Assembly: GCA_016206085.1 (NCBI GenBank)
Contig: JACQSF010000005.1
Coordinates: 1,337 to 65,336, forward strand
Source of the DNA: Candidatus Uhrbacteria bacterium
GTDB taxonomy: Bacteria > Patescibacteriota > Patescibacteriia > UBA9934 > GWF2-40-263
Length of the DNA stretch: 64,000 nt
Direction of reading: 5' to 3'
Positions 23,602-37,453 of this stretch are shown here, piece after piece; the stretch's first letter is position 1; each line of letters begins with the position of its first letter. Under the pieces are notes generated by a model that saw nothing but the letters and a program-made list of their open reading frames with translations, searched no databases and had not been told where the DNA came from. The position numbers and the translations under genes are program-made.

Positions 23602-25635
23602 TTAATCAAATCGAATCGTTTGGCCGGTGTGAAGCGTGCCTGTTTGATTTGTTGATTCGGACGTAACTTCGGGAGCCGAAGCCAGTTTTTTCTTCTTTCG
23701 TTTTCGTTTTCTTTTTTCCAATACGGTATCTCCACCTGAATTGATTGCCCTCGGAATCGTTTTCGTTGCTATTTCTGTTTTACGACGTTCACGAATTTTT
23801 GCTAAACAGTTCTCACAATAGAGCGGCCGTGATGGATCAAGTTTTACGCCTGCTTTAAACGCCGTACCACACTGATTGCAGATGTACTCATAGGTTTCCC
23901 CCCGCATCTCTTTTTTTCGTGGACGAATTTCTGCCTGCGTCGGTGTCTTCTGTCCCTCAAACAGCACCCCAAGATTCAAAGATGGTCCGTCGAGCGCTTC
24001 TTGTGTAGGTTCGGGTTTGGATTCTGGTCTTGATCCTTCCTGTGTGTGCGGCTTGTGAAGTGCCCCAAGGCTTATGGAGGGCTCCTCTGGTAATAACCTT
24101 ATTGGTTTCTCTTCCAGTGGTCTGGAAGGAGTTTCCAGAAACCTCCCTTTTTTTCCTTTCCGTTCCTCGCGAACGATGGCGATACAATCATCGCAATAAA
24201 TCGGACGTGATCGATCCAGTTCAACCGGAAGGACGATACCTGTTGCACATCGTGAACAGGTATATTCAAACCGAGGTTTCTTACTCTCTTTGGCCATCTT
24301 TTTCTTTTCAGCAGCCTCCTGCAGAAGCTCATCAACGTCGGCGTTCTCCATCCCGCTCCATTGTAAAACTTTTTCTTCTATTTCCACACGCGGTTTGGCG
24401 TAACGTTCGCGAGAAATTTTGATGACTTTTTGTTCTGATCCAGTTTTTTGAGAAATGGGCGGCAACGTGATCGCGGAGAATGGTTGACTTGTTACACCAT
24501 CAATCAACAGTTTAAGGTAGATGTTATATTTGGGGAGGTTGATAATGTCTTCAGGCGTAAATCGGGGCATGAATTCCGTTTCCATAAACGCGGCGTCTGG
24601 TGAACCAACACGGAACGTTATAATTGTTCCCACGTTTCCAAACACCGCGTCACGCACCGGCTCGGTTAGCTGCGCGATGTACTGATGAGCCATCGTCAAA
24701 CACAGGCGATACTTCCGAGCCTCAGAAAGGATGGAGGCGAACGACTCAACGGCGAAATTTTGAAACTCGTCAACGTAGAGGTAAAAATCTTTCCTCTCAT
24801 GCTCCAGTGTATCCACGCGTTCCATCGCGGCAAGCTGCATCTTGGTAATCAATAATCCACCCAGAAGCCGCGAGTTATCTTCACCGATACGACCTTTTGA
24901 GAGGTTAATGATGAAGATTTTTTGACTATCCATAATGTCCCGAACATTGATGGAGGACTTTACTTGCGCAACAATGTTTCGAATCACAACGGCTGACAGA
25001 AACTGTCCAATCTTATTTTGAATCGGAGCAACGGCCTCCTGGGCATATTTCTCATTGTAGGAAGCAAACTCAACCAGCCAGAACTGTTTCACGACAGGGT
25101 CCTTCACGTTTCCCACGATCCGTTTGCGAAAATCCGCATCCGATAACATGCGGTTAATGCCAAGCAATGTTTGCCCTGGCGAATCCATCAGAGCCAACAG
25201 GGTGTTATTCAAAATGTATTCCATACGACTGGACCACATATTCTCCCAAATTTTTTGAAACACTCCCATCATGCCTGAAACGACGAGATGTTTATGAGAT
25301 TCACTTACCGCCTCCAGAATATTGAATCCCACAGGGAAATCCATGTCCGCCGGATTAAAATATACGACGTCGTTGAGACGCCAACTGGGAATAAAGTCAA
25401 TGAGCCTTTCGGCTGTATCTCCATGCGGATCGACGTAGCAACAACCATGTCCAGCATAAATATCCGATAACATGAAATTTTCCAATAAGACCGTTTTGCC
25501 CATGCCTGTTTTTCCAATCACATACACATGCCGACGTCGGTCGTCAGTCCTGATTCCAAACTTTGTCATCTGATTACGGAAATTTGTCTTGGCGAAGTAG
25601 GTAACTTCGGTTTCGTGTTCGTGATTGTATGACAT
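23602..25635 (-). CDS. TraD/VirD4-like (type IV coupling-protein-like) P-loop ATPase with two C-terminal CxxC-x17-CxxC zinc ribbons
   Basis: Walker A GKTGMGKT, Walker B FYLYVDEFQNF and a TMAHQYIAQL motif. There is no TM segment. The C-terminal third contains C460/C463/C481/C484 and C586/C589/C607/C610 plus a poly-Lys tract. Confidence 0.7.
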   Translation of the reverse strand: MSYNHEHETEVTYFAKTNFRNQMTKFGIRTDDRRRHVYVIGKTGMGKTVLLENFMLSDIYAGHGCCYVDPHGDTAERLIDFIPSWRLNDVVYFNPADMDFPVGFNILEAVSESHKHLVVSGMMGVFQKIWENMWSSRMEYILNNTLLALMDSPGQTLLGINRMLSDADFRKRIVGNVKDPVVKQFWLVEFASYNEKYAQEAVAPIQNKIGQFLSAVVIRNIVAQVKSSINVRDIMDSQKIFIINLSKGRIGEDNSRLLGGLLITKMQLAAMERVDTLEHERKDFYLYVDEFQNFAVESFASILSEARKYRLCLTMAHQYIAQLTEPVRDAVFGNVGTIITFRVGSPDAAFMETEFMPRFTPEDIINLPKYNIYLKLLIDGVTSQPFSAITLPPISQKTGSEQKVIKISRERYAKPRVEIEEKVLQWSGMENADVDELLQEAAEKKKMAKESKKPRFEYTCSRCATGIVLPVELDRSRPIYCDDCIAIVREERKGKKGRFLETPSRPLEEKPIRLLPEEPSISLGALHKPHTQEGSRPESKPEPTQEALDGPSLNLGVLFEGQKTPTQAEIRPRKKEMRGETYEYICNQCGTAFKAGVKLDPSRPLYCENCLAKIRERRKTEIATKTIPRAINSGGDTVLEKRKRKRKKKKLASAPEVTSESTNQTGTLHTGQTIRFD

Positions 25636-25641
25636 GGGGGT

Positions 25642-27183
25642 CTAAATAGGGAGATTGGATGGAACGTCTTCTGACGGCGTTGCTTGTTCATCGTCAACCT
25701 CTAATTTTTTCGGCATGTGTGGGTGTGGCATGGCCTGAGAAAGTGGTTCATCGCTTACCGTTTCAGTCATCACAGGAAACGCTTGTCTGTCTGGTTCAGG
25801 TTCCATCCCAGGCGGCACGTATCCAGGCAATGTTTCCTCCAAGTACGTAATGGGAAGTCCAGAAGGCGGTTCCGCACGTTTTGATTCGCTCTTTTTGACC
25901 AGTGGAGCTTTGATGGTGATCGAGGGAAAGTGCCAAATCGTAGCCAATTCTTCCACATTCAAGAAAAACGGGTCAGCACCCACTCCCCAACTTCGTCGTT
26001 GATACGCAGACATCAGTCGACGTTGTTTTGTCGTGTAAAACCATCGCATCCAAAAATAGTCATCTTTAGGAACGGAAGGGACGTGAACAGTAAATTTGTT
26101 GAGGTTGAGGTTGGTAAGCTGGTTAAGAACCCCCTTCACGATCCCCGTTCGTTCCACTTTTACGAACGCATTTTTTCGAGCGACATACAGCACCCGAATC
26201 TTGCACCCAAGCCCGATCTTGGACGCTTTTCTGAGGATCGCTTCTGCTTCCTCCTTCTGGGCAATGGTCACCTTAAACGCCTTCCATTGATCCTCAACTT
26301 TTTCCTGCTCCTTTGATCCAAGCAGGCCACTCACATCCATCCCTATTGCCTCCTGAATAAGCCCTGCCGGCCAAGAAACGGTAGAATCAAGCGCCTCGAG
26401 AAAAAAACTTTTCTTTGCTTTCTCCTCAACACCGTACAATTTATTCACAAATTTGACACTCTTTTTCTGCCAATTGCTATCCGATGGTTGTACAAGAATC
26501 TGAATCCAAAAATGTTCTCCGGCACGCATCTTGGCGAGTTGTTCAAGCGTTACGCCAAGCGGATCCTTGATCTCCTGGGAAATTCGATCCTCAAAATCCA
26601 AATGCGTTCGAACAGGGTAAATCTGATCCCTGTCCAGTTTCATTTCGGCGCCCCACATTTCGTAGTCGTCATTGGGGAACTCGAAAGGATACTTCTTGGC
26701 ATAGTCCTCGACCTCTGAAATTTCTGCCTCAGGATAATTCGCGTAGACCCCCGCCTCAATCACGTCGCGAAACCGTGTTTGTGTACGAACCAAAAATTGG
26801 ATGTACCCTTCTGTAGAAATGATCTCAAACGCAAACACCGGATGAAGTTTCCCGTCCATCCACTTCTCCTTCCAGGTGATGGTGGACTTTGTAGCCATCA
26901 AAGAAGCAAAGAAATTTTCGAAGGCCTTGGGTGTCTGTTCGGTCATGCTGGGAACATCGATGGCAAGCACCGTGAACTTCATCTTGACTGAATATTTTCC
27001 CCGTCGATCATTGAGCCACATTTCAGCAAATCCCCAGCCCAGGGTGATGACGATGGGAATCCATCCAAACCAAATAAAAATCTCAAAAAGAATAACGTCA
27101 ATCGGCTGTGCAAAAAACGAGGAGCCACTGGAGGCGACCCCTGTTGCTTGGTGTGCGATGGGAATGACGAACAATGAAAGCAT
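25642..27183 (-). CDS. hypothetical membrane protein (two N-terminal TM helices plus a large cytoplasmic domain), partner of the ATPase
   Basis: Hydrophobic N-terminus (FEIFIWFGWIPIVITLGWGF). A 6-nt gap separates it from the downstream ATPase gene. No recognised domain. Confidence 0.5.
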   Translation of the reverse strand: MLSLFVIPIAHQATGVASSGSSFFAQPIDVILFEIFIWFGWIPIVITLGWGFAEMWLNDRRGKYSVKMKFTVLAIDVPSMTEQTPKAFENFFASLMATKSTITWKEKWMDGKLHPVFAFEIISTEGYIQFLVRTQTRFRDVIEAGVYANYPEAEISEVEDYAKKYPFEFPNDDYEMWGAEMKLDRDQIYPVRTHLDFEDRISQEIKDPLGVTLEQLAKMRAGEHFWIQILVQPSDSNWQKKSVKFVNKLYGVEEKAKKSFFLEALDSTVSWPAGLIQEAIGMDVSGLLGSKEQEKVEDQWKAFKVTIAQKEEAEAILRKASKIGLGCKIRVLYVARKNAFVKVERTGIVKGVLNQLTNLNLNKFTVHVPSVPKDDYFWMRWFYTTKQRRLMSAYQRRSWGVGADPFFLNVEELATIWHFPSITIKAPLVKKSESKRAEPPSGLPITYLEETLPGYVPPGMEPEPDRQAFPVMTETVSDEPLSQAMPHPHMPKKLEVDDEQATPSEDVPSNLPI

Positions 27184-27237: not shown

Positions 27238-28131
27238 CTAGGTGTTTTTTTGAGTACGCAAAGTCACAAGCAATGGACTTGCGATAAACACGGATGAGTA
27301 GGTTCCCACCAGGACTCCAATGAGCAGTAACATCGCAAACGGACGTGTGGATTCTCCCCCAAAGAGAAAGACCGCAAGGAGCGCCAGGAAAACAGTCACG
27401 GACGTATTGATGGAACGGGCAAGTGTTTGATCAATCGCGCGATCCACAATTTCCTCAAGATGCGTTGAGATTTTCAGTTTCAAGTTTTCGCGCGTTCGAT
27501 CCAACACCACCACACCGTCATTAATAGAGTATCCCAGAATCGTCAGGGCTCCCGCAACAAAGGCTGTATCCATCTCATACCCTAGAAAATGACCCAAGAT
27601 CGCAAAGACACCAATAGAAATCAGGAGGTCATGGAAGGTTTTGAGGACGGTCAGAATCGCGATCTTTTTTCCAGAGATAAGCGTTTCGTCAGCGCTTTTG
27701 AAGGACCAGGCAAGATACAACGCGATAAGCACAAGGCTTGTGCCAATTCCCCACAGGGCCATTTGGCGCAATTCTTTCCCAATGATGGGACCAATGGAAT
27801 CGAACTTGAGTTCCGTGATCGCTCCAAATGTCTGAGTAAGACTTCCCAGAAGGACTTGGTGTTCTTCCTCCGTGATGGTGCGGGTTCTGATGAGAACACT
27901 CTCTTGTGAGAGCTGAACAACCGCCTCGGTATGTCCGGCTGTGGCCAGAGCCTCATGTACGGCAGATTGCGTCGGAAGTGGATTCATGGAAACTTCCAGG
28001 AGTGAACCTCCGGTGAAATCGATCCCAGGTCGGAGTCCCCAAACAGTCAGAGCAACAATACTCAAAACACCTAGCGCGAGTGAGAACCCATACCAGGCCT
28101 TACGATGTTCAATAATGTGTAGCTTGATCAT
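27238..28131 (-). CDS. secF: protein translocase subunit SecF
   Basis: GIDFTGGSLLEV ... SINDGVVVLDRTRE ... TSVTVFLALLAVFLFGG. Confidence 0.9.
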   Translation of the reverse strand: MIKLHIIEHRKAWYGFSLALGVLSIVALTVWGLRPGIDFTGGSLLEVSMNPLPTQSAVHEALATAGHTEAVVQLSQESVLIRTRTITEEEHQVLLGSLTQTFGAITELKFDSIGPIIGKELRQMALWGIGTSLVLIALYLAWSFKSADETLISGKKIAILTVLKTFHDLLISIGVFAILGHFLGYEMDTAFVAGALTILGYSINDGVVVLDRTRENLKLKISTHLEEIVDRAIDQTLARSINTSVTVFLALLAVFLFGGESTRPFAMLLLIGVLVGTYSSVFIASPLLVTLRTQKNT

Positions 28132-28135
28132 AACG

Positions 28136-30199
28136 TTAGGTGCGTGGAGATTTAGAAAAACTGGAGAGCCAGGGGATCTTCAGGGCGTTGCGTGGAAACG
28201 CCGCGTCCATAAAACTCCGGGTGATCACGACGGCCGTGAACATACTGACCAAGACACCAATTCCAAGCAGGAGCGCAAAGCCGCGCACAAAACTGGTACT
28301 AAACACATAGAGGACAATCGCCACGACAAGGGTCGCCACATTTGAATCGCGAATGGCCGGCCAGGCACGTAGGAATCCTTCACGCGTTGCTCCAGCAAAA
28401 TCACGTCCCGATGCAAGCTCTTCCTTCATACGTTCGATGATGAGCACATTTGCATCCACCGCCATCCCCAAAGAGAGAATGAATCCAGCCACACCCGAGA
28501 GCGTGATGGTTACACCAAAGACTCGATAAATGGCCAGGTTGAGGAGCGCGTACAACATGAGAGCCACCACGGAAAAAAAACCAGCAAGCCGGTAATACGC
28601 GATCATGTAGATTGCCACGAGCGTGAATCCAACCAATGCAGCCTTCACACTCATAGAAAGCGACGTTGCCCCAAGGGTTGGTCCAACCGTCTGCTGCGAG
28701 AGCAGCGCAAGGGCAACCGGAAGAGCCCCTGCGTTCAAACGCTGAGACAACATCTTGGCTTCCGCCACGGTAAAGTTTCCGGTGATCACGGCCTGACCCC
28801 CGTAAATTGCCTGTTGAACGACGGGTGTTGAAATGGCTGAACCATCCAAGAAGATCGCCATGGGTTGACCCACGTGTGTTTGGGTTAACGTTGCAAAGAG
28901 ATCCGCCCCTTCTCCATTAAATGTGATGGCGACATAGGCAGAGCCGGTGGATGGGTCGAATTCAACCGCTGCGCGTGTGAGGTGCTTTCCACTGAGTGAG
29001 GTATTCACCCACTCATCAGTCTGAGGAATAACATCGTAGATACTCGAAAACGGCATGAGCACACGCTGGATCGTATAAGCCGGAATGGTTCGCTCATCGC
29101 GCTTGAGGATAAGATGGTAGCCGTACTCGGTTTCAACCACGGAAGAAATCTGCCCAATCTCAAGCTGCTCGGAGGCAAGACCAAAAGACGCAACATACGC
29201 ATCTGCTGTGGACCATCCCAAATCTCCCGAATTCGAAACGGCAGAGGGATCTGTCGAGTATTGTTTTGCAAGCTCCCCAAAATTTTCTGTGGTTGCTTGA
29301 TCTTTCAAATTGGTGATTTGGATCGAGGCATCCAGGGCGGTGAGCTCGTTCGTGCAACCTGTCTTACCCTCAAAACAGATGAGGATATGTGAAAGCTGCA
29401 TCTGTGCCATGTTGGTTGACTCAAGATACTTGAAGACACTAATTCCCTCTTCGTTCTCAAGAAGGTTCCCATTCACCTGCCCGGGGATAGCACCGCGCTG
29501 TTCAAGAAGAAGAACGTACTCGCCGAAAAAGGAATCTGAGGTCACACGTTGGATGATTCCCTTTGTGGTTTCTTTGTTGCGATCTGTGCTGTACTGAGCG
29601 ACAAGCGAATCAAAATCTTCCTGAGCACGTGCTCGATTGAGCACCTCTTGTGCGGCGGCTCGTTCTTGGGTGTTGAGTTCGTCCAACCTGTCTAACTCCT
29701 CCTTAGTGGGTTCACGATCAAGCTCTTCTCCAGGCACCTTAAACTCAAGGACAGGCGTCTCGCCAATCAGGGCAATCGCTTCGCTAACCTCAAGCACGCC
29801 AGCCAATTCGATCACAACGCGATAAGACCCACCTGTCGACGTTATCTGTACAACAGGTTCAGACACGCCAAAAGCGTTTACCCGTCTCTCAATCACATCA
29901 CGAACCCCCTCAAGCGCCTCCAAGCGATCTTCCTCTGGAATTTGAGTCATGTCCGCCTCATATACAAGGTGGGTTCCTCCTTGGAGGTCAAGTCCCAGAC
30001 GGAAAGATTTTTCTTCAAGCGTTGGAGGCAACCAGCCCGTTTTTGCCTCAACAAATTTTGCTCCCTGGTTCCAAAACCCAGGAAAATCATAGAATAGGGT
30101 GACAACGATGGCGATTAAGCCAAGAATTGCCCAAGCACGGGGCTTCCATGTTTTGGAACCATGAGCCACAGTTTTTTTCTTTATTTTCCACGTTTGCAT
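28136..30199 (-). CDS. secD: protein translocase subunit SecD with inserted tandem parvulin-like domains
   Basis: LGLDLQGGTHLVYE, RVNAFGVSEPVVQ, and the C-terminal 6-TM RND-like region with GMAVDANVLIIERMKEE. A PpiC-like block occupies aa about 286-386. The start was moved to ATG 30199. Confidence 0.9.
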   Translation of the reverse strand: MQTWKIKKKTVAHGSKTWKPRAWAILGLIAIVVTLFYDFPGFWNQGAKFVEAKTGWLPPTLEEKSFRLGLDLQGGTHLVYEADMTQIPEEDRLEALEGVRDVIERRVNAFGVSEPVVQITSTGGSYRVVIELAGVLEVSEAIALIGETPVLEFKVPGEELDREPTKEELDRLDELNTQERAAAQEVLNRARAQEDFDSLVAQYSTDRNKETTKGIIQRVTSDSFFGEYVLLLEQRGAIPGQVNGNLLENEEGISVFKYLESTNMAQMQLSHILICFEGKTGCTNELTALDASIQITNLKDQATTENFGELAKQYSTDPSAVSNSGDLGWSTADAYVASFGLASEQLEIGQISSVVETEYGYHLILKRDERTIPAYTIQRVLMPFSSIYDVIPQTDEWVNTSLSGKHLTRAAVEFDPSTGSAYVAITFNGEGADLFATLTQTHVGQPMAIFLDGSAISTPVVQQAIYGGQAVITGNFTVAEAKMLSQRLNAGALPVALALLSQQTVGPTLGATSLSMSVKAALVGFTLVAIYMIAYYRLAGFFSVVALMLYALLNLAIYRVFGVTITLSGVAGFILSLGMAVDANVLIIERMKEELASGRDFAGATREGFLRAWPAIRDSNVATLVVAIVLYVFSTSFVRGFALLLGIGVLVSMFTAVVITRSFMDAAFPRNALKIPWLSSFSKSPRT

Positions 30200-30224
30200 A
30201 TGAGATAAAAGACGGCAATAGTGT

Positions 30225-30815
30225 ATGCGATCAGATCCCCTGGAGCAAGTGCACAACCCAAGATTGATTGACGCAATGAGTCTATTGATGTATGGTTCCT
30301 CGTCCTTTGGAGGTCAGATGTCAAGTACGAGAGGCGCCATTGCCCTCAAACAGGAAGTCCCGGATCAGACCCTCATCGCCCAGGAGCCAAGCCTGGTTCT
30401 GAGCGTCGTCGAGGTGGACGGAAATCCGTTGGAAGAGAACCCCTTCACGGCTACCATCCCCTTCCAACGACTCCAGGAACGGATCATCATCGGGTGTGAA
30501 AGCCCGACGCAGATCCCTCTGTTCCATCCGGATCTGGATCTGCAAGAAATCCTCAAGACCTATTCGACCGCAGACACTGGTTGGATCGTCTCGCGACAGC
30601 ATGTGCTGTTGGGCTTGCAGGATGGTGTCGTCATTGCCACCAACCTCTCCCACAGCAGTGGCACCTCATGGATCGAGAGATCCACACGCCTGCGTCCACT
30701 GCTCTCGCGCTACCCACACGTTCTTCGGCCCGGCGACATCCTTATTCTGGGGAACCCCAGTGGACGCTGTGTCCGGATTCGGATCGAGTTCTCCTCCACG
30801 TCCCACAACGAGTGA
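30225..30815 (+). CDS. hypothetical protein with an FHA-like C-terminal domain
   Basis: IIIGCES...VSRQHVLLGLQDGVVIATNLSHSSGTSWI...LRPGDILILG resembles the FHA pattern (G-R ... SR-H ... S-x-N-G-T). The true start may be at 30276. The segment is somewhat GC-richer than its neighbours. Confidence 0.35.
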   Translation: MRSDPLEQVHNPRLIDAMSLLMYGSSSFGGQMSSTRGAIALKQEVPDQTLIAQEPSLVLSVVEVDGNPLEENPFTATIPFQRLQERIIIGCESPTQIPLFHPDLDLQEILKTYSTADTGWIVSRQHVLLGLQDGVVIATNLSHSSGTSWIERSTRLRPLLSRYPHVLRPGDILILGNPSGRCVRIRIEFSSTSHNE

Positions 30816-30863: not shown

Positions 30864-32411
30864 TCACATGTCAGTTCCTGAGTAACTAAGGTTGAGAGAC
30901 TTATTGCACAGCGGAAAGTCTGGGACGATGTTTCCTGGTCCAAGCTCTCCAAACAGCGCCCAGTTGCAAAACGATGGGTCGCGGGGCATACAGCGTTCTA
31001 TTTTTCCATTTTTGAGGTGCACGACGGTAAGAATCTCTCCGCGCCAGGATTCGACGGCACCAATACCTGATCCGTCCTTATAAGATAGACCTGTGCAGAC
31101 GACGCCACCCCTGTTCAGCTTGAGCGCCGCCAGAAGAACCTCCAGAGAAACAGCAAGCTCATCCACACGACATCGATATCGAGCATACACGTCTCCATCC
31201 ATCGCTGTCACGAGTTTCCAAGGAAGTTCCTGGTACGCGGCATACGGGTGTGAGGCTCGAACATCTCGCATGACACCAGAGGCACGAGCCGGAAGTCCGA
31301 CCGCCCCGTAGGCGATCGCTGTTTCATGCTTGAGCACACCGGTTGTCTCCAATCGCTCTCGTAGTCCATCTGATTGCATTGCCATGGCGACCAAATCCTG
31401 CATTTCTTTGACCGCGGCCGTGGCGGTCTCGCTTACCAGATCGCATTCCCCCTCTGTCCAATCGCGCGTAACACCACCTGGAACGATTGCTCCGCGCCAG
31501 AATCGGTTACCCAGCAATGATTCAGAGAGTCGCACAAGACGCTCTTTTACGCGGAAACCGTTAGCCGCCATAAGGCTGTATCCAGTTCCCATGCCAGCGA
31601 TATTGGCGAGATCGTGGATGTGCATTGTGAGACGTTCAAGTTCACACAGGGCGACGCGCAAAGCCTGCGCACGCTCTGGAACCTTTGTCTCAGAAATTTT
31701 TTCCACAGCCTGACAAAACGCGAGGGCGTGTGATGCGGCCATATCGCCGGAAAGACGTTCGATGAAAGCCAGAGCCTCCTCTGGAGTCTTCCCTTCCAGA
31801 AGTTTCTCAACCCCCTTATGAGTGAAGAACAATTTTCCCTCAAGAGTAATGATACGTTCTCCCGCGACGTTGAAGCGGAAATGTCCCGGTTCGATGATCC
31901 CGGCGTGAATCGGTCCCACAGGGATCTCATACACTCCATCCCCTTCAACATGATGCATCGGGTACGGAACCTGGGCATGATCGAGTTTGGTGTTCCAAGC
32001 AAAATCTTTTCGAAGCGGGTGTGTTTCTTCGGGGATATTTTCGTGGTGAACCAAACGGCGTGGATCTGGATGACCCTCTGGAGTAATTCCAAACATGTCT
32101 TGGAGGTAGCGCTCATACCAGTGAGCCGCCATCACGGACGCAGTAATGGACGGATAAGATGGACTCTCGGATGAGACAGATGTCGAGAGAACCAACCACT
32201 GTGCTTCCTCTTCCAGAGACAGAACCGCATGAACACTAAACGTATTTTTTTGTGCTCGGTCGTCTGTGGCATACACCAACGAAAGTGGTAAACCAGACTC
32301 GATGAGCTTCCCGACAAGAGTGGCAAACTCCACAGACTCAACCTGACAATGCATTTCGTCGTGATGAGTTGTGGAAGAAGGAAATAAAGATTTTATCTGT
32401 TTGTATGTCAT
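30864..32411 (-). CDS. fused NuoC-NuoD / HycE-like large subunit lacking all NiFe-ligand cysteines
   Basis: NuoC-like N-terminus (AAHWYERYLQDMFGITPEGHPDPRRL), then PVGPIHAGIIEPGHFRF...FTHKGVEKL. L1 reads ERLSGDMAASH and L2 reads NLSYSGTDM. The start forms an ATGA overlap. Confidence 0.85.
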   Translation of the reverse strand: MTYKQIKSLFPSSTTHHDEMHCQVESVEFATLVGKLIESGLPLSLVYATDDRAQKNTFSVHAVLSLEEEAQWLVLSTSVSSESPSYPSITASVMAAHWYERYLQDMFGITPEGHPDPRRLVHHENIPEETHPLRKDFAWNTKLDHAQVPYPMHHVEGDGVYEIPVGPIHAGIIEPGHFRFNVAGERIITLEGKLFFTHKGVEKLLEGKTPEEALAFIERLSGDMAASHALAFCQAVEKISETKVPERAQALRVALCELERLTMHIHDLANIAGMGTGYSLMAANGFRVKERLVRLSESLLGNRFWRGAIVPGGVTRDWTEGECDLVSETATAAVKEMQDLVAMAMQSDGLRERLETTGVLKHETAIAYGAVGLPARASGVMRDVRASHPYAAYQELPWKLVTAMDGDVYARYRCRVDELAVSLEVLLAALKLNRGGVVCTGLSYKDGSGIGAVESWRGEILTVVHLKNGKIERCMPRDPSFCNWALFGELGPGNIVPDFPLCNKSLNLSYSGTDM

Positions 32412-33886
32412 AAAGGTGTGAGAGACTTGGCGATCTGAGAGACCATTTCCCAACCTGCTCCAGAAAGCATCCAGATGCCGAACACGAGAGCGGCTCCCAA
32501 CTGAACCGTCATGACCGTGTGGGCAAGGTTCCCTGTTTCAACCGAGGCGTCTTGTTTTTCTTCTGGGACGACGGGGCTGTACAAAAGCTCAAACAAATGT
32601 CGACTCAGTCCCAGTCCTGCCATGGTAATTCCAAGAAGCGCAAGCAGCGCGATCACCGGACTGCGGGTCAATCCTTCTCCGACTAGGATATATTCACTCA
32701 AGAACAGTCCGGATGGAGGAACACCGATCAAAAACAGAGCCGCGATTAAAAAGAGAAACCCTGTGCGTGGCGCTCGACGCATCACATCATGGACAAGATA
32801 AAATTTTGTAGATTCAAACCGTTGCAAGAGCTCTCCTGCCCCGAAGAACAAGGTGGATTTCGCCAGGGCATGCCCAATCATGTGGATGGTGAATCCAACC
32901 ATTCCAACAGGTCCCAGTCCCACCAGCACTCCCATGATTCCCATGTGTTCCACGCTGTGGTAGGCAAGCATACGCTTGTAATTGCGCTGAATGAGCAAAA
33001 TGAATGCAGCCAGCAAAATGGAGAAGAGGCCGAAAAAGAGAAAAAACTGGTTCGTCCAGTCCGGGTTGCCAAGCGTCCCATCGACAATGACCTTGAACCT
33101 CAAGAGCGTGAAGAACGCAACATTGAGCAGGATACCCGAGAGCATAGCGGAAACCGGAGCCGGCGTTTTGCTGTGCGCGTCCGGGAGCCACGTGTGCATG
33201 GGGACAAATCCGATTTTGGTTCCAAAACCAATGAATAAGAACACGAATGCCCACATCACGATCCCAGGGTTCATCGTTCCTGCCACATCCTGAAGCAGAT
33301 TCATTCTAAATGCCTCAGCCTCGTGCAAACCCGCGCCCGCACCTGCATAGCCCAAGACGAGAATCCCAAAAAGTCCCAGGGCAATTCCTGTTGAGCACAG
33401 GACGATATACTTCCACGCCGCCTCCATCGAGGATTTCTTTCCATAAAAGGAGACAAGGAGTGTGGTTGAAAGCGTGGTCGCTTCAAGTCCAACCCAAAGG
33501 AGTCCGACGTTGTTTGCGAAAATCGCCACAAGCATGGAGAGGACAAACAGGGGTACGCTCACCATGTAGAGTCGCATGTGCCGCAAGGACAAGATCTCCT
33601 TACGTTCCTCCACGGCAAGGTAGTGAAAACTCACCCCCATGGCACAGGCGTAGAGCCAGACCACCAAGAGGGCGACAAGTGAAGCAAACGGGGTCACGTC
33701 CCACCAGGACGTTTGCCAGCCTTCTGTGAGACCGACCAATACCGGACCCAACATCCAGGTCATCGTTACAAGCGTGATGATCGATGTTATGAGACCAATC
33801 GCTCGAAGCATCCGACCATGCATGTTCGGGAGAAGACAGACAGCGGAACCGATGAGAAGAATTCCAACGGAAAGAAAAAACGTCAT
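32408..33886 (-). CDS. NuoN/NuoM / HyfF-like antiporter-type membrane subunit
   Basis: LLWVGLEATTLST and GFGTKIGFVPMHTWLPDAHSKTPAPVSAMLSG (Proton_antipo_M hallmark). Confidence 0.8.
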   Translation of the reverse strand: MTFFLSVGILLIGSAVCLLPNMHGRMLRAIGLITSIITLVTMTWMLGPVLVGLTEGWQTSWWDVTPFASLVALLVVWLYACAMGVSFHYLAVEERKEILSLRHMRLYMVSVPLFVLSMLVAIFANNVGLLWVGLEATTLSTTLLVSFYGKKSSMEAAWKYIVLCSTGIALGLFGILVLGYAGAGAGLHEAEAFRMNLLQDVAGTMNPGIVMWAFVFLFIGFGTKIGFVPMHTWLPDAHSKTPAPVSAMLSGILLNVAFFTLLRFKVIVDGTLGNPDWTNQFFLFFGLFSILLAAFILLIQRNYKRMLAYHSVEHMGIMGVLVGLGPVGMVGFTIHMIGHALAKSTLFFGAGELLQRFESTKFYLVHDVMRRAPRTGFLFLIAALFLIGVPPSGLFLSEYILVGEGLTRSPVIALLALLGITMAGLGLSRHLFELLYSPVVPEEKQDASVETGNLAHTVMTVQLGAALVFGIWMLSGAGWEMVSQIAKSLTPL

Positions 33887-33888
33887 AC

Positions 33889-34554
33889 TTAGTCAGTCAA
33901 CTCATTCAAATGAGTGGTATCGTGCGTCCCAAACAAGGCCTGAACGCGGTGGCTCAGCGTGGCCATGAGGATCGCTCCAATCAAGACGGCCGAGTACACG
34001 CCAAACTCAATCGCCACGGGAATTCCTCCTAAGGCACTCAACGAAAATGCCGCGATCCCGTTTTCAAGCACAAGGAAGCCAATAAGCTGGGAAAGCAGGT
34101 CGCGTCGCAAAATCATCATGACGAGTCCGACAAGAATGACTCCAACGGAAATCGGCAAAAGAACCAGGATCTGACCGATTCCCTCCCCCGCGAGAATGAG
34201 CGGTGAACGCAGTGCAAGAAAAATTCCTAAAGTGAAAACGAGTCCACCGACGAACCAGCTTGCCGAAGGGCGCAACGAGGATGAAAGACGTAACGACGCA
34301 CCGGAGTGTTCTGCCATGTTTCGAATCACAAAAGGAACCAGGAGTGCCTTGATGGCCACAACGGCGACGGCAACGGGAATGAGATGCATGGCAGATTTCT
34401 CATAAGCGAGAGCCAGAGCGAGGCCACCCAGCGCCACAGATGAAAATGTATAGGATCGCAAGAGGCTCGGGAGACGCATGAGCGTGAACGACGCCAGTGT
34501 CCCCGCGATAAACAGTCCAAGCATGAGCATTGTGAATAACGTAGGGGTCGTCAT
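33889..34554 (-). CDS. HyfE-like small polytopic membrane subunit (NuoK-related)
   Basis: A 221-aa protein with about 7 TM segments, placed between the HycD-like and HyfF-like genes as in hyf operons. ATGA overlap upstream. Confidence 0.6.
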   Translation of the reverse strand: MTTPTLFTMLMLGLFIAGTLASFTLMRLPSLLRSYTFSSVALGGLALALAYEKSAMHLIPVAVAVVAIKALLVPFVIRNMAEHSGASLRLSSSLRPSASWFVGGLVFTLGIFLALRSPLILAGEGIGQILVLLPISVGVILVGLVMMILRRDLLSQLIGFLVLENGIAAFSLSALGGIPVAIEFGVYSAVLIGAILMATLSHRVQALFGTHDTTHLNELTD

Positions 34555-35474
34555 ACAACAAGGGTAAGTATCAAACCGAACAAGGCGAGAAAAAAGGCAA
34601 TGCTCATATACTCCTGCATGCGGAAAAAGCGCATCTTGGCGATCGAGGACTCCAAGAGGCCGAGGGCGAACGAACCAACCACCACTGTGGCCAAAACACC
34701 ACCCACAGCCAGACCAATCGTCATGGGATCAAATGCTCCCTCGGGTTTTGCCCAAACGAGGTTTCCTAAAATAAGCAGGAACACCGTGAGTTTGATCGAG
34801 GAAGCGTATTCGAGCATCGCAAGGTAAGGACCGGAATATTCCAGAACCATCGCCTCGTGCACCATCGTAAGCTCAAGGTGGGTGGCTGGATTATCAATAG
34901 GATAGCGAGCGTTCTCGGCAAGGGTAATCAAGATGAGTGCCCCAAAACTCAACAGCAGCGCAGGATGAGACCAAGCCGACATCCCCTGTCCAAATATCTC
35001 CTGGACGGAGGTACTTTCTGCGACCGTCGCAAAAGCTGCAAACGTGGTGAGTACGGCGGGTTCAATGAGCGCGGCAAGGGTCATTTCGCGACTAGCTCCC
35101 ATCCCTCCAAACGCCGTGGCGGCATCAAGCCCACCCAACACAAGGAAGACGGAACTCAGCGCCAGAACTCCAGCCAGGACAAAGAGATCGACCTGTGAGA
35201 TTCCGCTATCAGAAAAGACAAGGGGAAGCGTTAACGCCAGGAAGACGGCAACACCTAAGACCATGAACGGTACCAACCGAAACACCCAAGATCGGCTGGC
35301 GGAAATAACATGCTCCTTTTTAAGCGTGGTCAACAGGGCGTAGTAGACAAGCAATGGCGAAGCGCCCTGTCTCCCCTGAAATCGCGCCTTAAACCATACA
35401 ACCAAACCCGACACAAATGGGGCGATGAGCAGGACAAGAACAACCTGTATGATAAGTGTGATAACCATGATCAT
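34551..35474 (-). CDS. NuoH / HycD-like membrane subunit
   Basis: LIAPFVSGLVVWFKARFQGRQGASPLLVYYALLTTLKKE is the NuoH/HycD N-terminal signature. About 8 TM segments. Confidence 0.8.
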   Translation of the reverse strand: MIMVITLIIQVVLVLLIAPFVSGLVVWFKARFQGRQGASPLLVYYALLTTLKKEHVISASRSWVFRLVPFMVLGVAVFLALTLPLVFSDSGISQVDLFVLAGVLALSSVFLVLGGLDAATAFGGMGASREMTLAALIEPAVLTTFAAFATVAESTSVQEIFGQGMSAWSHPALLLSFGALILITLAENARYPIDNPATHLELTMVHEAMVLEYSGPYLAMLEYASSIKLTVFLLILGNLVWAKPEGAFDPMTIGLAVGGVLATVVVGSFALGLLESSIAKMRFFRMQEYMSIAFFLALFGLILTLVV

Positions 35475-37453
35475 AGAGCAATCCAGAGGGTAAGGATGAT
35501 GGTGGCAAAAATGAGGAAAAGGTAGAAACGAATGTTCCCGCTCTGGACTTTTTTCACTTGCTCAGCGACCCCCAGGAGGAACCGACCGACAGGAACGTAT
35601 CCAAAGTCCATCCAGATAGAACGCATATTGAGGGTCGATGTGTGAGAAACAATCCAAGGATTGCTTGCCACCACAGGTTGAGTCGCAATCTGTTTCTTTG
35701 TTCGCAATATCAAACGAAAGAAAAATCGGATCGGCGCCGAAAAGGCCGTGGCTGTGTACTCCATGCTGGCATCAATCGGTTGACCGCAGTCCCACCCATG
35801 ATATTCCCTCTCATGCTTCACACGACTTGTGAGACGACGACCGACCCAGACAAGAACCACACTCCCCAGAAGAAGCCAAAGGATAAGCGATGGTTGAATG
35901 GTGGCGCTTCCAACGGAGAGTTCTCGTGGGGACGCCGTCATGGCTCCACCCCCAATGAGTGTCAGAACCGTCGGTGCATAGAGTCCCAGAGCGAAGATCG
36001 CAAGCGCACAGACCCCAACAGAAAACAGCTCTCCGGATGATGGAAGTTCGTGAACTTCTCTCGCGTGCGCACTCCGAGGTTCGGCCAACATGGAAAGCGC
36101 AAACAATTTCACCATGGCAAAGATCGCCAACCCCCCCACGAGTACCACAAGCGCAAATGTGAAGATCAAGACCGCACTCACCAAAACAGATGTTGAGGAA
36201 ACGTTTTGCAAGAGTCCTTGGAAGAACATCCACTCACCAAAGAAGGAACCAAACGGCGGCAAGGAGGCAGCTGCAAGGGCAAGCACACAGAAGAACACAG
36301 AGAATGCTGGAAGCGGTTTGGCAAGCCCGCCCATCTTTTCAAGATTGCGTGAATGAACGGCCCGCACCACAACCCCTGAGACAAGAAAAAGACCTGTCTT
36401 GAAAATGGCGTGAGAGATCGCAAAGAAAACTGAGGCGACGATCGCTACTTCATACAACCCTACTAGCCCAACCGAGGAGGCAAAAAATGCCACACCGATC
36501 ATGGTAAAGATAAGGCCAATGTTTTCGATACTGCTAAACGCGAGCGTCCGTTTGAAGTCACGATCAACCACCGCATACAAGACTCCAAACAGCGCCGAGA
36601 GAAGACCAAAACCTAAGATGATAAGCGAGGCAGACGTGCCAATAGGGGGAAGGATGAATAAGAGCACTCGAAGAAATCCGTAGATCGACACCTTCAGCAT
36701 GACTCCAGACATGAACGCAGAGATATGGCTTGGGGCGGCCGGGTGCGCCTCGGGAAGCCAGACATGAAATGGAACGAGTCCGGCCTTGGAACCAAAACCA
36801 AAAAAGAAGAGGCCGAAACACGTCCACAATACCCATGAGGGTACGATCCTGGCCATGGACGCGAGTGTTGAGAAATCAGTAAACAACGAACCCTGAGCCA
36901 AAAAGAGAAAGCCCGCTAAAATAGCCGCGGCTCCCAGATGTGTCATGATGAGATAGAGCAAAGCCGCTCGGATGGAGTCCTGTGACCGATCACTCATGAC
37001 CAGGAAAAAGGACGCGATGGACATCACTTCCCAGCCCGTCATAAACGCCAACGGCGTCTGTGACAAAATCACGATCTGCATGCCAAGAACAAAGGCCGCA
37101 ACAAGCGCGTTCAAACTCGGTAAGTGATACGTCTCTTGGTAGGAGCGCAGATAAGAGCCGGCATACACCGCGCACAGGACACTCACCAATGAGACGAGGG
37201 AAAAGAAAATAGCTCCGAACAAGTCTAACTGAAACACGGGAAAGAATTCCGCAAACTCGAGTAGGATCTGCAATCCTGTTTCTGGAGCAAGAAAAATCTT
37301 GAAACTTGCGATCAGACCCAGAACACCTGAAACGGCCAGCGAGACCTGCGAAAGTTTATGAAACAAAAGAGATCGTCCAGAAAGTGCGACCACCCCCGAG
37401 AGCGACGTGAACAGGAGACTCGCGAACAACATATGCTCACTCAACCATAACAT
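35471..37453 (-). CDS. NuoL / HyfB / HycC-like antiporter-type membrane subunit
   Basis: FMTGWEVMSIASFFLV and GFGSKAGLVPFHVWLPEAHPAAPSHISAFMSG. 660 aa. Confidence 0.8.
   Translation of the reverse strand: MLWLSEHMLFASLLFTSLSGVVALSGRSLLFHKLSQVSLAVSGVLGLIASFKIFLAPETGLQILLEFAEFFPVFQLDLFGAIFFSLVSLVSVLCAVYAGSYLRSYQETYHLPSLNALVAAFVLGMQIVILSQTPLAFMTGWEVMSIASFFLVMSDRSQDSIRAALLYLIMTHLGAAAILAGFLFLAQGSLFTDFSTLASMARIVPSWVLWTCFGLFFFGFGSKAGLVPFHVWLPEAHPAAPSHISAFMSGVMLKVSIYGFLRVLLFILPPIGTSASLIILGFGLLSALFGVLYAVVDRDFKRTLAFSSIENIGLIFTMIGVAFFASSVGLVGLYEVAIVASVFFAISHAIFKTGLFLVSGVVVRAVHSRNLEKMGGLAKPLPAFSVFFCVLALAAASLPPFGSFFGEWMFFQGLLQNVSSTSVLVSAVLIFTFALVVLVGGLAIFAMVKLFALSMLAEPRSAHAREVHELPSSGELFSVGVCALAIFALGLYAPTVLTLIGGGAMTASPRELSVGSATIQPSLILWLLLGSVVLVWVGRRLTSRVKHEREYHGWDCGQPIDASMEYTATAFSAPIRFFFRLILRTKKQIATQPVVASNPWIVSHTSTLNMRSIWMDFGYVPVGRFLLGVAEQVKKVQSGNIRFYLFLIFATIILTLWIAL

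Follow-up and report, generated by a model that had tools for sequence, protein, structure and literature searches.

The locus described here raises the question of whether SecD of a Candidatus Uhrbacteria bacterium carries a built-in protein foldase, where in the protein such a foldase would sit, and what it might do for protein export. The secD gene lies on a stretch of 64,000 nucleotides of contig JACQSF010000005.1 (assembly GCA_016206085.1), referred to in the following as the window. A preliminary description of this sequence had proposed that about 215 residues of the periplasmic P1 region of SecD form an insert of two tandem parvulin-like domains, the first degenerate and the second with the parvulin signature. 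This observation proved correct in both halves and lies far from chance, since the two domains separately exceed the Pfam cut-off. In the reading that we favour, to which we assign a probability of roughly 60%, this module is predicted to be a translocon-tethered foldase on a genuine SecD, with its two parvulins located where the P1 base meets the mobile P1 head.

Identity and domain organisation of SecD

The open reading frame (ORF) that harbours secD is open over 28136..30256 on the reverse strand, with a TTG at 30256 as its upstream end, and contains all of the peptide strings quoted previously. The start of secD is almost certainly the ATG at 30199, because the homologues begin with MQTWK. 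Residues are numbered here from the Met at 30199, which corresponds to the earlier number minus 19; the preliminary description had counted from the TTG at 30256, and its span 29087..29734 comprises its residues 175-390. An identical protein is present in NCBI, where it is labelled as SecD of Candidatus Uhrbacteria bacterium.

The NCBIfam model TIGR01129 identified the protein as SecD, in agreement with the first description, with 360.8 bits against a cut-off of 244.4. In the Pfam search with the whole protein, PF21760, PF22599, PF02355 and PF07549 all exceeded their gathering scores. In the earlier numbering, the matches correspond to residues 117-173 for SecD_1st, 275-383 for Rotamase_3, 290-384 for Rotamase (PF00639; E 2.9e-23, in two stretches), 419-514 for SecDF_P1_head, and 518-680 for SecD_SecF_C. 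The domain order is a first transmembrane helix (TM1), SecD_1st, an entry helix with the first parvulin (pv1), the second parvulin (pv2), a return strand, the P1-head core, and TM2-6 (Table 1). By homology of SecD with the structures 3aqp and 5xan, TM1 would put all sequence up to TM2 outside the cytoplasm. The P1 head is the substrate-capturing subdomain of SecD.

Head and base were delimited with the Pfam models and with an alignment to SecDF of Thermus thermophilus (3aqp). Residues 22-120 of T. thermophilus SecDF align with residues 55-158 of the protein described here, and residues 159-436 align with residues 401-677. Between base and head there are 242 residues (159-400), compared to 38 in T. 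thermophilus (121-158), which amounts to a net insertion of about 205 residues and agrees well with the earlier estimate. The insert itself, of about 240 residues, begins a few residues past the strand PVLEFK and stops just short of the P1-head core. Judged by the Pfam boundaries, it is located at the junction of P1 base and P1 head, and not inside the head core. The parvulins had been placed within the P1 head; their position in the P1 region of SecD was confirmed, but the position inside the head core was not.

SecF is the obligatory partner subunit of SecD, and the gene next to secD encodes it, as its product scored 256.8 bits with TIGR00966 (cut-off 160). The SecF product possesses the motifs GYSINDG and TLARS, matching GYSINDS and TLSRT of T. 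thermophilus around the Asp of TM10 and the Arg of TM11. In SecD, D582 of TM4 aligns with D340 of T. thermophilus and is invariant in 86 homologues. The roles of the SecD TM4 Asp, which is essential, and of the SecF TM10 Asp and TM11 Arg have been described (PMC5974789). With the TM4 Asp invariant and both SecF motifs present, the SecDF motor looks intact. On the evidence of the family hidden Markov model (HMM), the essential TM4 Asp and the adjacent partner SecF, the protein is classified as SecD.

The canonical parvulin pv2

Scored alone, pv2 reached 64 bits with PF00639, for which the gathering cut-off is 21.7, and 67 bits with PF13616; the HMM check that had been named for the second half of the insert thus returned a parvulin. 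Alignment with human Pin1 and Escherichia coli Par10 matched H271, D317, T357 and H362 of pv2 to H59, C113, T152 and H157 of Pin1. Most bacterial parvulins have Asp where Pin1 has C113. In the same alignment, pv2 shows no counterpart of the basic phosphate-binding loop of Pin1, and for this reason it is likened to the non-phospho-specific type represented by Par10, PrsA and the second parvulin of SurA (SurA-P2).

Conservation of these residues was followed in a close set, comprising the 84 of 86 homologues that possess pv2, and in a distant set of 117 homologues from the candidate phyla radiation (CPR; Patescibacteria), to which the tiny-genome Uhrbacteria bacterium also belongs. The distant homologues are 36-70% identical to the search query P0203, which is the most divergent full-length member (37% identical). 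H271 is present in 80 of the 84 close homologues and in 116 of the 117 distant ones. D317 is kept in 69 close homologues, with Gly in 14, and either Asp or Glu is found in 110 of the distant set. T357 is likewise kept in 80 of 84, and all 117 distant sequences have Thr or Ser at this position. H362 (83 of 84) and F339 of the hydrophobic pocket (81 of 84) are both present throughout the distant set (117 of 117). The HMM scores, the fold match described below and the full tetrad kept across deep divergence place pv2 in the parvulin family, and from the conserved tetrad it is predicted to have peptidyl-prolyl isomerase (PPIase) activity.

pv2 also carries two cysteines, C275 and C282, in a loop directly past its first strand. 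Both are present in all 84 close homologues with pv2, and among the 117 distant homologues 69 possess both, 48 possess neither, and none possesses a single one. C275 and C282 are among the strongest covarying pairs according to mutual information with average product correction (MI-APC). Since the pair co-occurs strictly and the domain is extracytoplasmic, the two residues probably form a stabilising disulfide outside the cell.

The degenerate parvulin pv1

pv1 alone scored 27.5 bits with PF00639 (E 6.4e-6), also above the gathering cut-off, and covers only positions 17-94 of the 97 profile positions. As the match starts at position 17, pv1 lacks the strand that bears the leading His, in agreement with the reading of the first half as a degenerate parvulin. 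Compared to Pin1 and Par10, only the Asp of the tetrad is kept; Asn stands in place of Thr and Ser in place of the second His, and the first His is absent together with its strand. pv1 is the least conserved region of the protein, with a mean pairwise identity of 37%, and was modelled by AlphaFold with a predicted local distance difference test (pLDDT) of 84-98. We classify pv1 from these features as a parvulin fold and not as a predicted enzyme. A chance resemblance of pv1 to parvulins was ruled out by the above-cut-off Pfam score and by the parvulin fold in the model. The pairing of an inactive and an active domain as in SurA, which had been suggested at the outset, is borne out by the loss of the tetrad in pv1, its retention in pv2, and SurA as the best match over both domains.

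Predicted structure and topology of the insert

The full-length AlphaFold model has a mean pLDDT of 82 and a predicted template modelling score (pTM) of 0.44, with pLDDT values of 84-94 in the insert. The model of the insert alone reached a pLDDT of 90.1 and a pTM of 0.72. Foldseek ranked SecDF structures first for the full model (E 3e-22), followed by SurA. For the insert alone, SurA was the best match across both domains, with an E value of 7e-11 and 237-253 aligned columns; the mutual orientation of the two domains differs from that in SurA, as reflected by a root-mean-square deviation (rmsd) of 15-16 Å over both. Single parvulins, namely SurA P1 and P2, PrsA, Pin1 and Par14, matched with a target TM-score of about 0.8 (0.75-0.83) and an rmsd of 2.3-3 Å.

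Both models contain the 26-residue entry helix and two unbroken strands of 23 residues, spanning residues 252-274 and 360-382. The former is the last strand of pv1 running into the first strand of pv2, and the latter is the last strand of pv2 running into TIPAYTIQRVLM. Together they would form a two-stranded ribbon that spans both domains and makes pv1 and pv2 one stiff unit. In the models, residues 375-382 likely supply the strand 1 that pv1 lacks, so that pv2 would be nested in a circularly permuted pv1. This nested topology is suggested by the continuous strands, by variants that have lost pv2, and by a band of coevolution.

At least two independent clean deletions of pv2 (residues 267-370) were found, one in P0060 and P0098 from Uhrbacteria and another in P0294 and P0296, which are relatives of P0203. 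These variants keep pv1, whose last strand is joined by a short loop to the return segment. The return segment is conserved in every lineage examined, and Arg379 of the return strand is replaced by His in nine of 86 homologues. The coevolution band, obtained by MI-APC from 239 sequences with a signal dominated by clade structure, is a weak antidiagonal at i + j = 633-637, at about the 99th percentile of the background. The signal for strands 1 and 4 of pv2 has its maximum in the same register. The weakness of the band limits the case for the nested strand, and a permutation scan brought no gain: Rotamase scores were 27.1-27.7 bits for a synthetic permuted pv1 with the return strand placed in front, for a control with this strand reversed, and for pv1 in its native context alike, and profile positions 1-16 had no match in any of them.

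Distribution of the SecD-parvulin fusion

Of the 120 best homologues of the window protein, 118 possess both Rotamase and SecDF_P1_head. These homologues have 54-85% identity and about 685 amino acids (aa), and originate from many independent assemblies, with contigs up to 842 kb. The same two domains are present in 119 of the 120 best homologues of P0203. Names retrieved by the P0203-seeded search include Gracilibacteria, Abawacabacteria, Peregrinibacteria, Magasanikbacteria, Kuenenbacteria, Buchananbacteria, and one Bipolaricaulota record, and all matches are ordered as N-terminal base, (pv1), pv2, head, and TM. In the relatives from Peregrinibacteria and Gracilibacteria, the same insert is found within a fused SecDF of 1000-1120 aa.

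Among GTDB species-representative genomes, at least five full-length loci were detected in Uhrbacteria, Magasanikbacteria and other Patescibacteria, a number that is a lower bound and not a census, as the scan used exact peptide patterns from a single query. In all five loci (L001-L005), secD with pv1 and pv2 is followed by secF. Among cluster representatives at 50% identity, 33 of the 149 scanned insert matches carry SecD parts. NCBI taxonomy lists Uhrbacteria and Magasanikbacteria as two distinct candidate phyla within the Parcubacteria group, and the fusion is therefore regarded as an old trait common to several CPR lineages, extending beyond the source genome as a survey of related lineages had been expected to clarify. 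Databases label the fusion proteins simply as SecD, and no description of the fusion emerged from full-text literature searches directed at it, in line with the initial remark that the architecture is uncharacterised.

The NCBI record labelled Candidatus Bipolaricaulota, P0303 (666 aa; contig of 266 kb), is a SecD-parvulin protein of CPR type with the Cys pair. Either the contig belongs to a CPR bacterium and was mis-binned, or the fusion also occurs outside Patescibacteria. Six members, P0316, P0367, P0394 and P0395 (787-795 aa) as well as P0351 and P0376 (778 aa), possess an extra 100-150 residues between pv2 and the P1-head core. The extra insertion of P0316 has hydrophobic segments resembling TM helices.

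Comparison with known systems

Similar to canonical SecDF of T. thermophilus (3AQP, 5YHF) and Deinococcus radiodurans (5XAN), the protein possesses TM1, P1 base, P1 head and TM2-6, which align with a sequence E value of 3e-77, as well as the TM4 Asp, and SecF is encoded directly downstream. In contrast, no solved SecDF structure matched by SecD aligned with the insert, and secD and secF are separate genes here.

PpiD, which acts with YfgM in E. coli and Vibrio, is the best functional analogue of the fusion, as it is also a membrane-anchored extracytoplasmic protein that bears a parvulin and acts at the Sec translocon. A link of PpiD with SecDF at the translocon is also reported in PMC9643414. 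However, PpiD is not part of SecD; it has a TM anchor of its own and a chaperone domain of the SurA-N type, and possesses a single inactive parvulin, compared to two parvulins here, of which pv2 has the full tetrad. The Pfam models SurA_N, SurA_N_2 and SurA_N_3 had no match in the SecD fusion, and Pfam and NCBIfam detected no chaperone domain of the SurA, PrsA or PpiD type beside the parvulins.

SurA of E. coli (1M5Y) likewise has tandem parvulins, inactive first and active second. The SurA model NF008038 aligns over both parvulins (residues 201-391 in the earlier numbering, profile positions 198-386) and scores 49.2 bits (cut-off 394). Unlike the SecD fusion, SurA is soluble in the periplasm and possesses N- and C-terminal chaperone segments. 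SurA is reported to interact with the Sec holotranslocon (PMC9987972).

PrsA of Firmicutes is similar as a parvulin foldase that works outside the cytoplasm, attached to the membrane of a single-membrane bacterium, and has a non-phospho-specific site with Asp where Pin1 has Cys. It differs in being a lipoprotein that forms dimers and combines a single parvulin with an N/C chaperone domain, whereas SecD itself is the anchor here; the N-terminus of the fusion corresponds to SecD TM1 and lacks a lipobox. The PrsA models NF002827, NF002846 and NF002824 scored 38-48 bits against cut-offs of 343-361. As the SurA and PrsA models remain far below their cut-offs and the chaperone domains are absent, the fusion is not a member of the SurA, PrsA or PpiD families.

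The dome formed by Mpn444, Mpn436 and Mpn489 on SecDF-SecYEG of Mycoplasma pneumoniae resembles the fusion in that its PrsA-like proteins combine one active PpiC domain with several degenerate ones and are located on the extracellular face of SecDF/SecYEG in a host with a reduced genome. It is, however, a non-covalent trimer of large lipoproteins that forms a chamber, with no insertion in SecD and no sequence kinship past the parvulin fold.

Proposed function and competing explanations

SecDF moves its P1 head by proton-motive force (PMF), and the amphiphilic cavity of the head contacts the precursor leaving SecYEG (PMC5974789). PpiD and SecDF of E. coli and Vibrio act together late in translocation, with non-redundant contributions, and in E. 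coli a photo-crosslinker at Asp-359 of the SecD P1 head crosslinks to PpiD (PMC7793623). PrsA-like lipoproteins of M. pneumoniae form the dome on SecDF/SecYEG, in which substrate density touches the single catalytically intact PpiC domain (bioRxiv 10.1101/2025.04.25.650208; 10.1101/2024.09.05.611430). With the PpiD-SecD contact and the Mycoplasma dome as precedents, we propose that the module is a tethered foldase and that the CPR protein makes the partnership covalent.

In the proposed mechanism, the two-parvulin module would ride on, or beside, the P1 head, the part of SecDF that captures the unfolded chain leaving SecYEG and moves with the proton-driven cycle. pv1 and the entry helix would act as a scaffold or as a peptide-binding surface. 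pv2 would be an active, non-phospho-specific PPIase that isomerises prolyl bonds as the P1 head releases the chain. The fusion would hard-wire a partnership met elsewhere by separate proteins, such as PpiD, the PrsA lipoprotein of Firmicutes, and the PrsA-like dome of Mycoplasma, and might replace free factors of the PrsA/PpiD type. The search of all six-frame ORFs with family-specific HMMs revealed no stand-alone parvulin in the 64-kb window besides secD.

Several points weigh against a tethered foldase. The insert evolves faster than the SecD core, with a mean pairwise identity of 55% in pv2 and the low value given above for pv1, compared to 71-78% in the core regions. With a pTM of 0.44 for the full-length model, the placement of the module relative to the P1-head cavity and SecYEG is tentative. 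pv2 was cleanly lost in at least two sublineages that keep pv1, and the PPIase domain is therefore not indispensable. The in vivo roles of SurA and PrsA do not need parvulin PPIase activity, and the parvulin domain of PpiD is catalytically inactive; conserved catalytic residues are for this reason not proof of selected catalysis.

The behaviour of SurA, PrsA and PpiD also favours the main rival explanation, a non-catalytic holdase or extended clamp, in which the parvulin pair would serve only as additional substrate-binding surface on the P1 head, as in SurA P1 and PpiD, and would help to capture and retain unfolded chains, with no need for prolyl isomerisation. PpiD, with its inactive parvulin, still cooperates with SecDF (PMC7793623), and pv1 is kept in every lineage examined despite its lost catalytic residues, even where pv2 is deleted. 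Nevertheless, the near-invariant tetrad and pocket of pv2 in sequences with an overall identity of no more than 36-50% are hard to explain without selection on the active site, and we consider a purely non-catalytic role rather unlikely.

The conserved active site, which points to peptide substrates, also speaks against a docking or spacer stalk for another partner, such as the cell wall, an S-layer, a nearby pilus or type-IV-like machinery, or a specific client. The stiff, elongated two-domain model entered via the 26-residue helix would suit such a stalk, as would the gene order, in which secDF is syntenic with genes for an uncharacterised membrane protein and a VirD4/TrwB-like ATPase in the window as well as next to a 41%-identical relative. 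However, this synteny may merely reflect compact CPR genomes, no specific partner is indicated, and the known extracytoplasmic bacterial parvulins SurA, PrsA, PpiD and PEB4 all act on unfolded exported proteins, which leaves the stalk with only a slim chance. An assembly or gene-calling artefact joining secD to a separate prsA-like gene is practically excluded, as the insert is internal and in frame, the flanking SecD aligns to solved SecDF structures on both sides, a scan of base composition across the insert showed no break, the same architecture recurs together with secF in hundreds of non-redundant proteins from independent assemblies and in the five GTDB loci, and nothing was found in favour of it.

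A stronger version of the tethered foldase would have the module mechanically coupled to the swing of the P1 head, as a PMF-powered foldase that replaces free extracytoplasmic chaperones in several CPR lineages. We regard this version as improbable. If true, PMF would drive substrate binding and release, and the module would be a foldase supplied with energy in the ATP-free space outside the cytoplasm. Active research concerns the way in which exported proteins pass from the Sec translocon to folding factors in the absence of ATP, with current work on PpiD/YfgM at SecYEG, on the interaction of SurA with the holotranslocon, and on the Mycoplasma folding dome. The conserved covalent fusion can be taken as Rosetta-stone evidence for a foldase at the SecD P1 head as a selected functional unit, and would offer a compact single-polypeptide system in which the coupling of translocation to folding can be studied structurally and biochemically. 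For the ultra-small CPR bacteria, whose cell-envelope biology is poorly understood, the fusion also provides a defined molecular trait. The putative nested parvulin-in-parvulin topology and the strictly co-occurring Cys pair are relevant to the evolution of protein domains.

Genomic neighbourhood and related proteins

Table 1. Features of the secD locus and related genes. Positions refer to the window, except for the last four rows, which refer to the loci named.
Feature	Position	Strand	Description	Evidence
secD coding sequence	28136..30199	-	687 aa; stop codon 28136-28138	ORF list, homologue starts, TIGR01129
TM1	30083..30136	-	Residues 22-39, AWAILGLIAIVVTLFYDF	Hydrophobic stretch in sequence; helix in AlphaFold model
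N-terminal part of P1 base (SecD_1st)	29738..29908	-	Ends in strand PVLEFK	PF21760, 53.9 bits
pv1	29411..29704	-	Residues 166-263; 26-residue entry helix, then degenerate parvulin	
pv2	29090..29410	-	Residues 264-370; canonical PpiC/parvulin domain	
Cys275-x6-Cys282 loop	29354..29377	-	Directly past strand 1 of pv2	
Return strand	29045..29089	-	Residues 371-385, TIPAYTIQRVLMPFS; leads back to P1 head	
P1-head conserved core	28715..29002	-		PF22599, 107 bits, profile positions 19-114 of 114
TM2-TM6, including TM4 D582 (GMAVDANV)	28217..28705	-		PF02355
secF	27238..28131	-	297 aa; 5 bases past secD stop codon	TIGR00966
Group-4 [NiFe]-hydrogenase/complex I-like module	30864-37453	-	Directly upstream of secD	
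Fused Complex1_30kDa + 49kDa/NiFeSe_Hases protein	30864-32453	-		
Proton_antipo_M subunits, two	32408-33886; 35471-37453	-		
NADHdh (NuoH-like) subunit	34551-35474	-		
513-aa protein and TrwB/VirD4-like coupling ATPase	23602-27183	-	Downstream of secF	
196-aa ORF	30225-30815	+	Overlaps unused 5' extension of secD ORF	
Anchored P1-head-parvulin gene, L081	2250-3143			
Anchored P1-head-parvulin gene, L082	3947-4807			
Anchored P1-head-parvulin gene, L083	3529-4389			
Anchored P1-head-parvulin gene, L084	2707-3567			

The genes on both sides of secD and secF are listed in Table 1. The hydrogenase/complex I-like module is notable for a CPR genome. Between this module and secD lies the 196-aa ORF on the forward strand, which is only a candidate gene; its FHA match is borderline and reaches just the cut-off, with 20.7 bits. 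On the other side, the 513-aa protein downstream of secF had no Pfam match, and the TrwB/VirD4-like coupling ATPase bears a C-terminal zinc ribbon. In the 41%-identical relative (P0138), the order is secD, secF, a small ORF, DUF8128, and a TrwB-like ATPase. As the gene order is the same for the secD of the window and for P0138, synteny is conserved across deep divergence.

Combinations of a P1-head domain with parvulins were also found in proteins other than SecD. P0169, P0187 and P0262, of about 280-297 aa, possess an N-terminal TM anchor, a domain similar to the P1 head (PF22599, 60-70 bits), and a parvulin, which shares the Cys-x6-Cys motif with pv2 of SecD. Genes of this anchored type are located directly downstream of a gene for a Trypsin_2 (HtrA-like) protease in four out of four loci, which suggests a membrane-anchored protease-foldase pair. 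A further protein, P0231 (604 aa, on a 5.5-kb Logan contig), has a lipoprotein-like N-terminus (LAALTGCT) and a weak segment similar to the SecD base, followed by two canonical parvulins with 120 residues between them and then a P1-head domain, and lacks TM2-6. Possibly, P0231 derives from the periplasmic module of SecD and is either soluble or anchored by a lipid. These proteins show that the P1-head fold has been combined with parvulins more than once, which fits a shared quality-control role for exported proteins.

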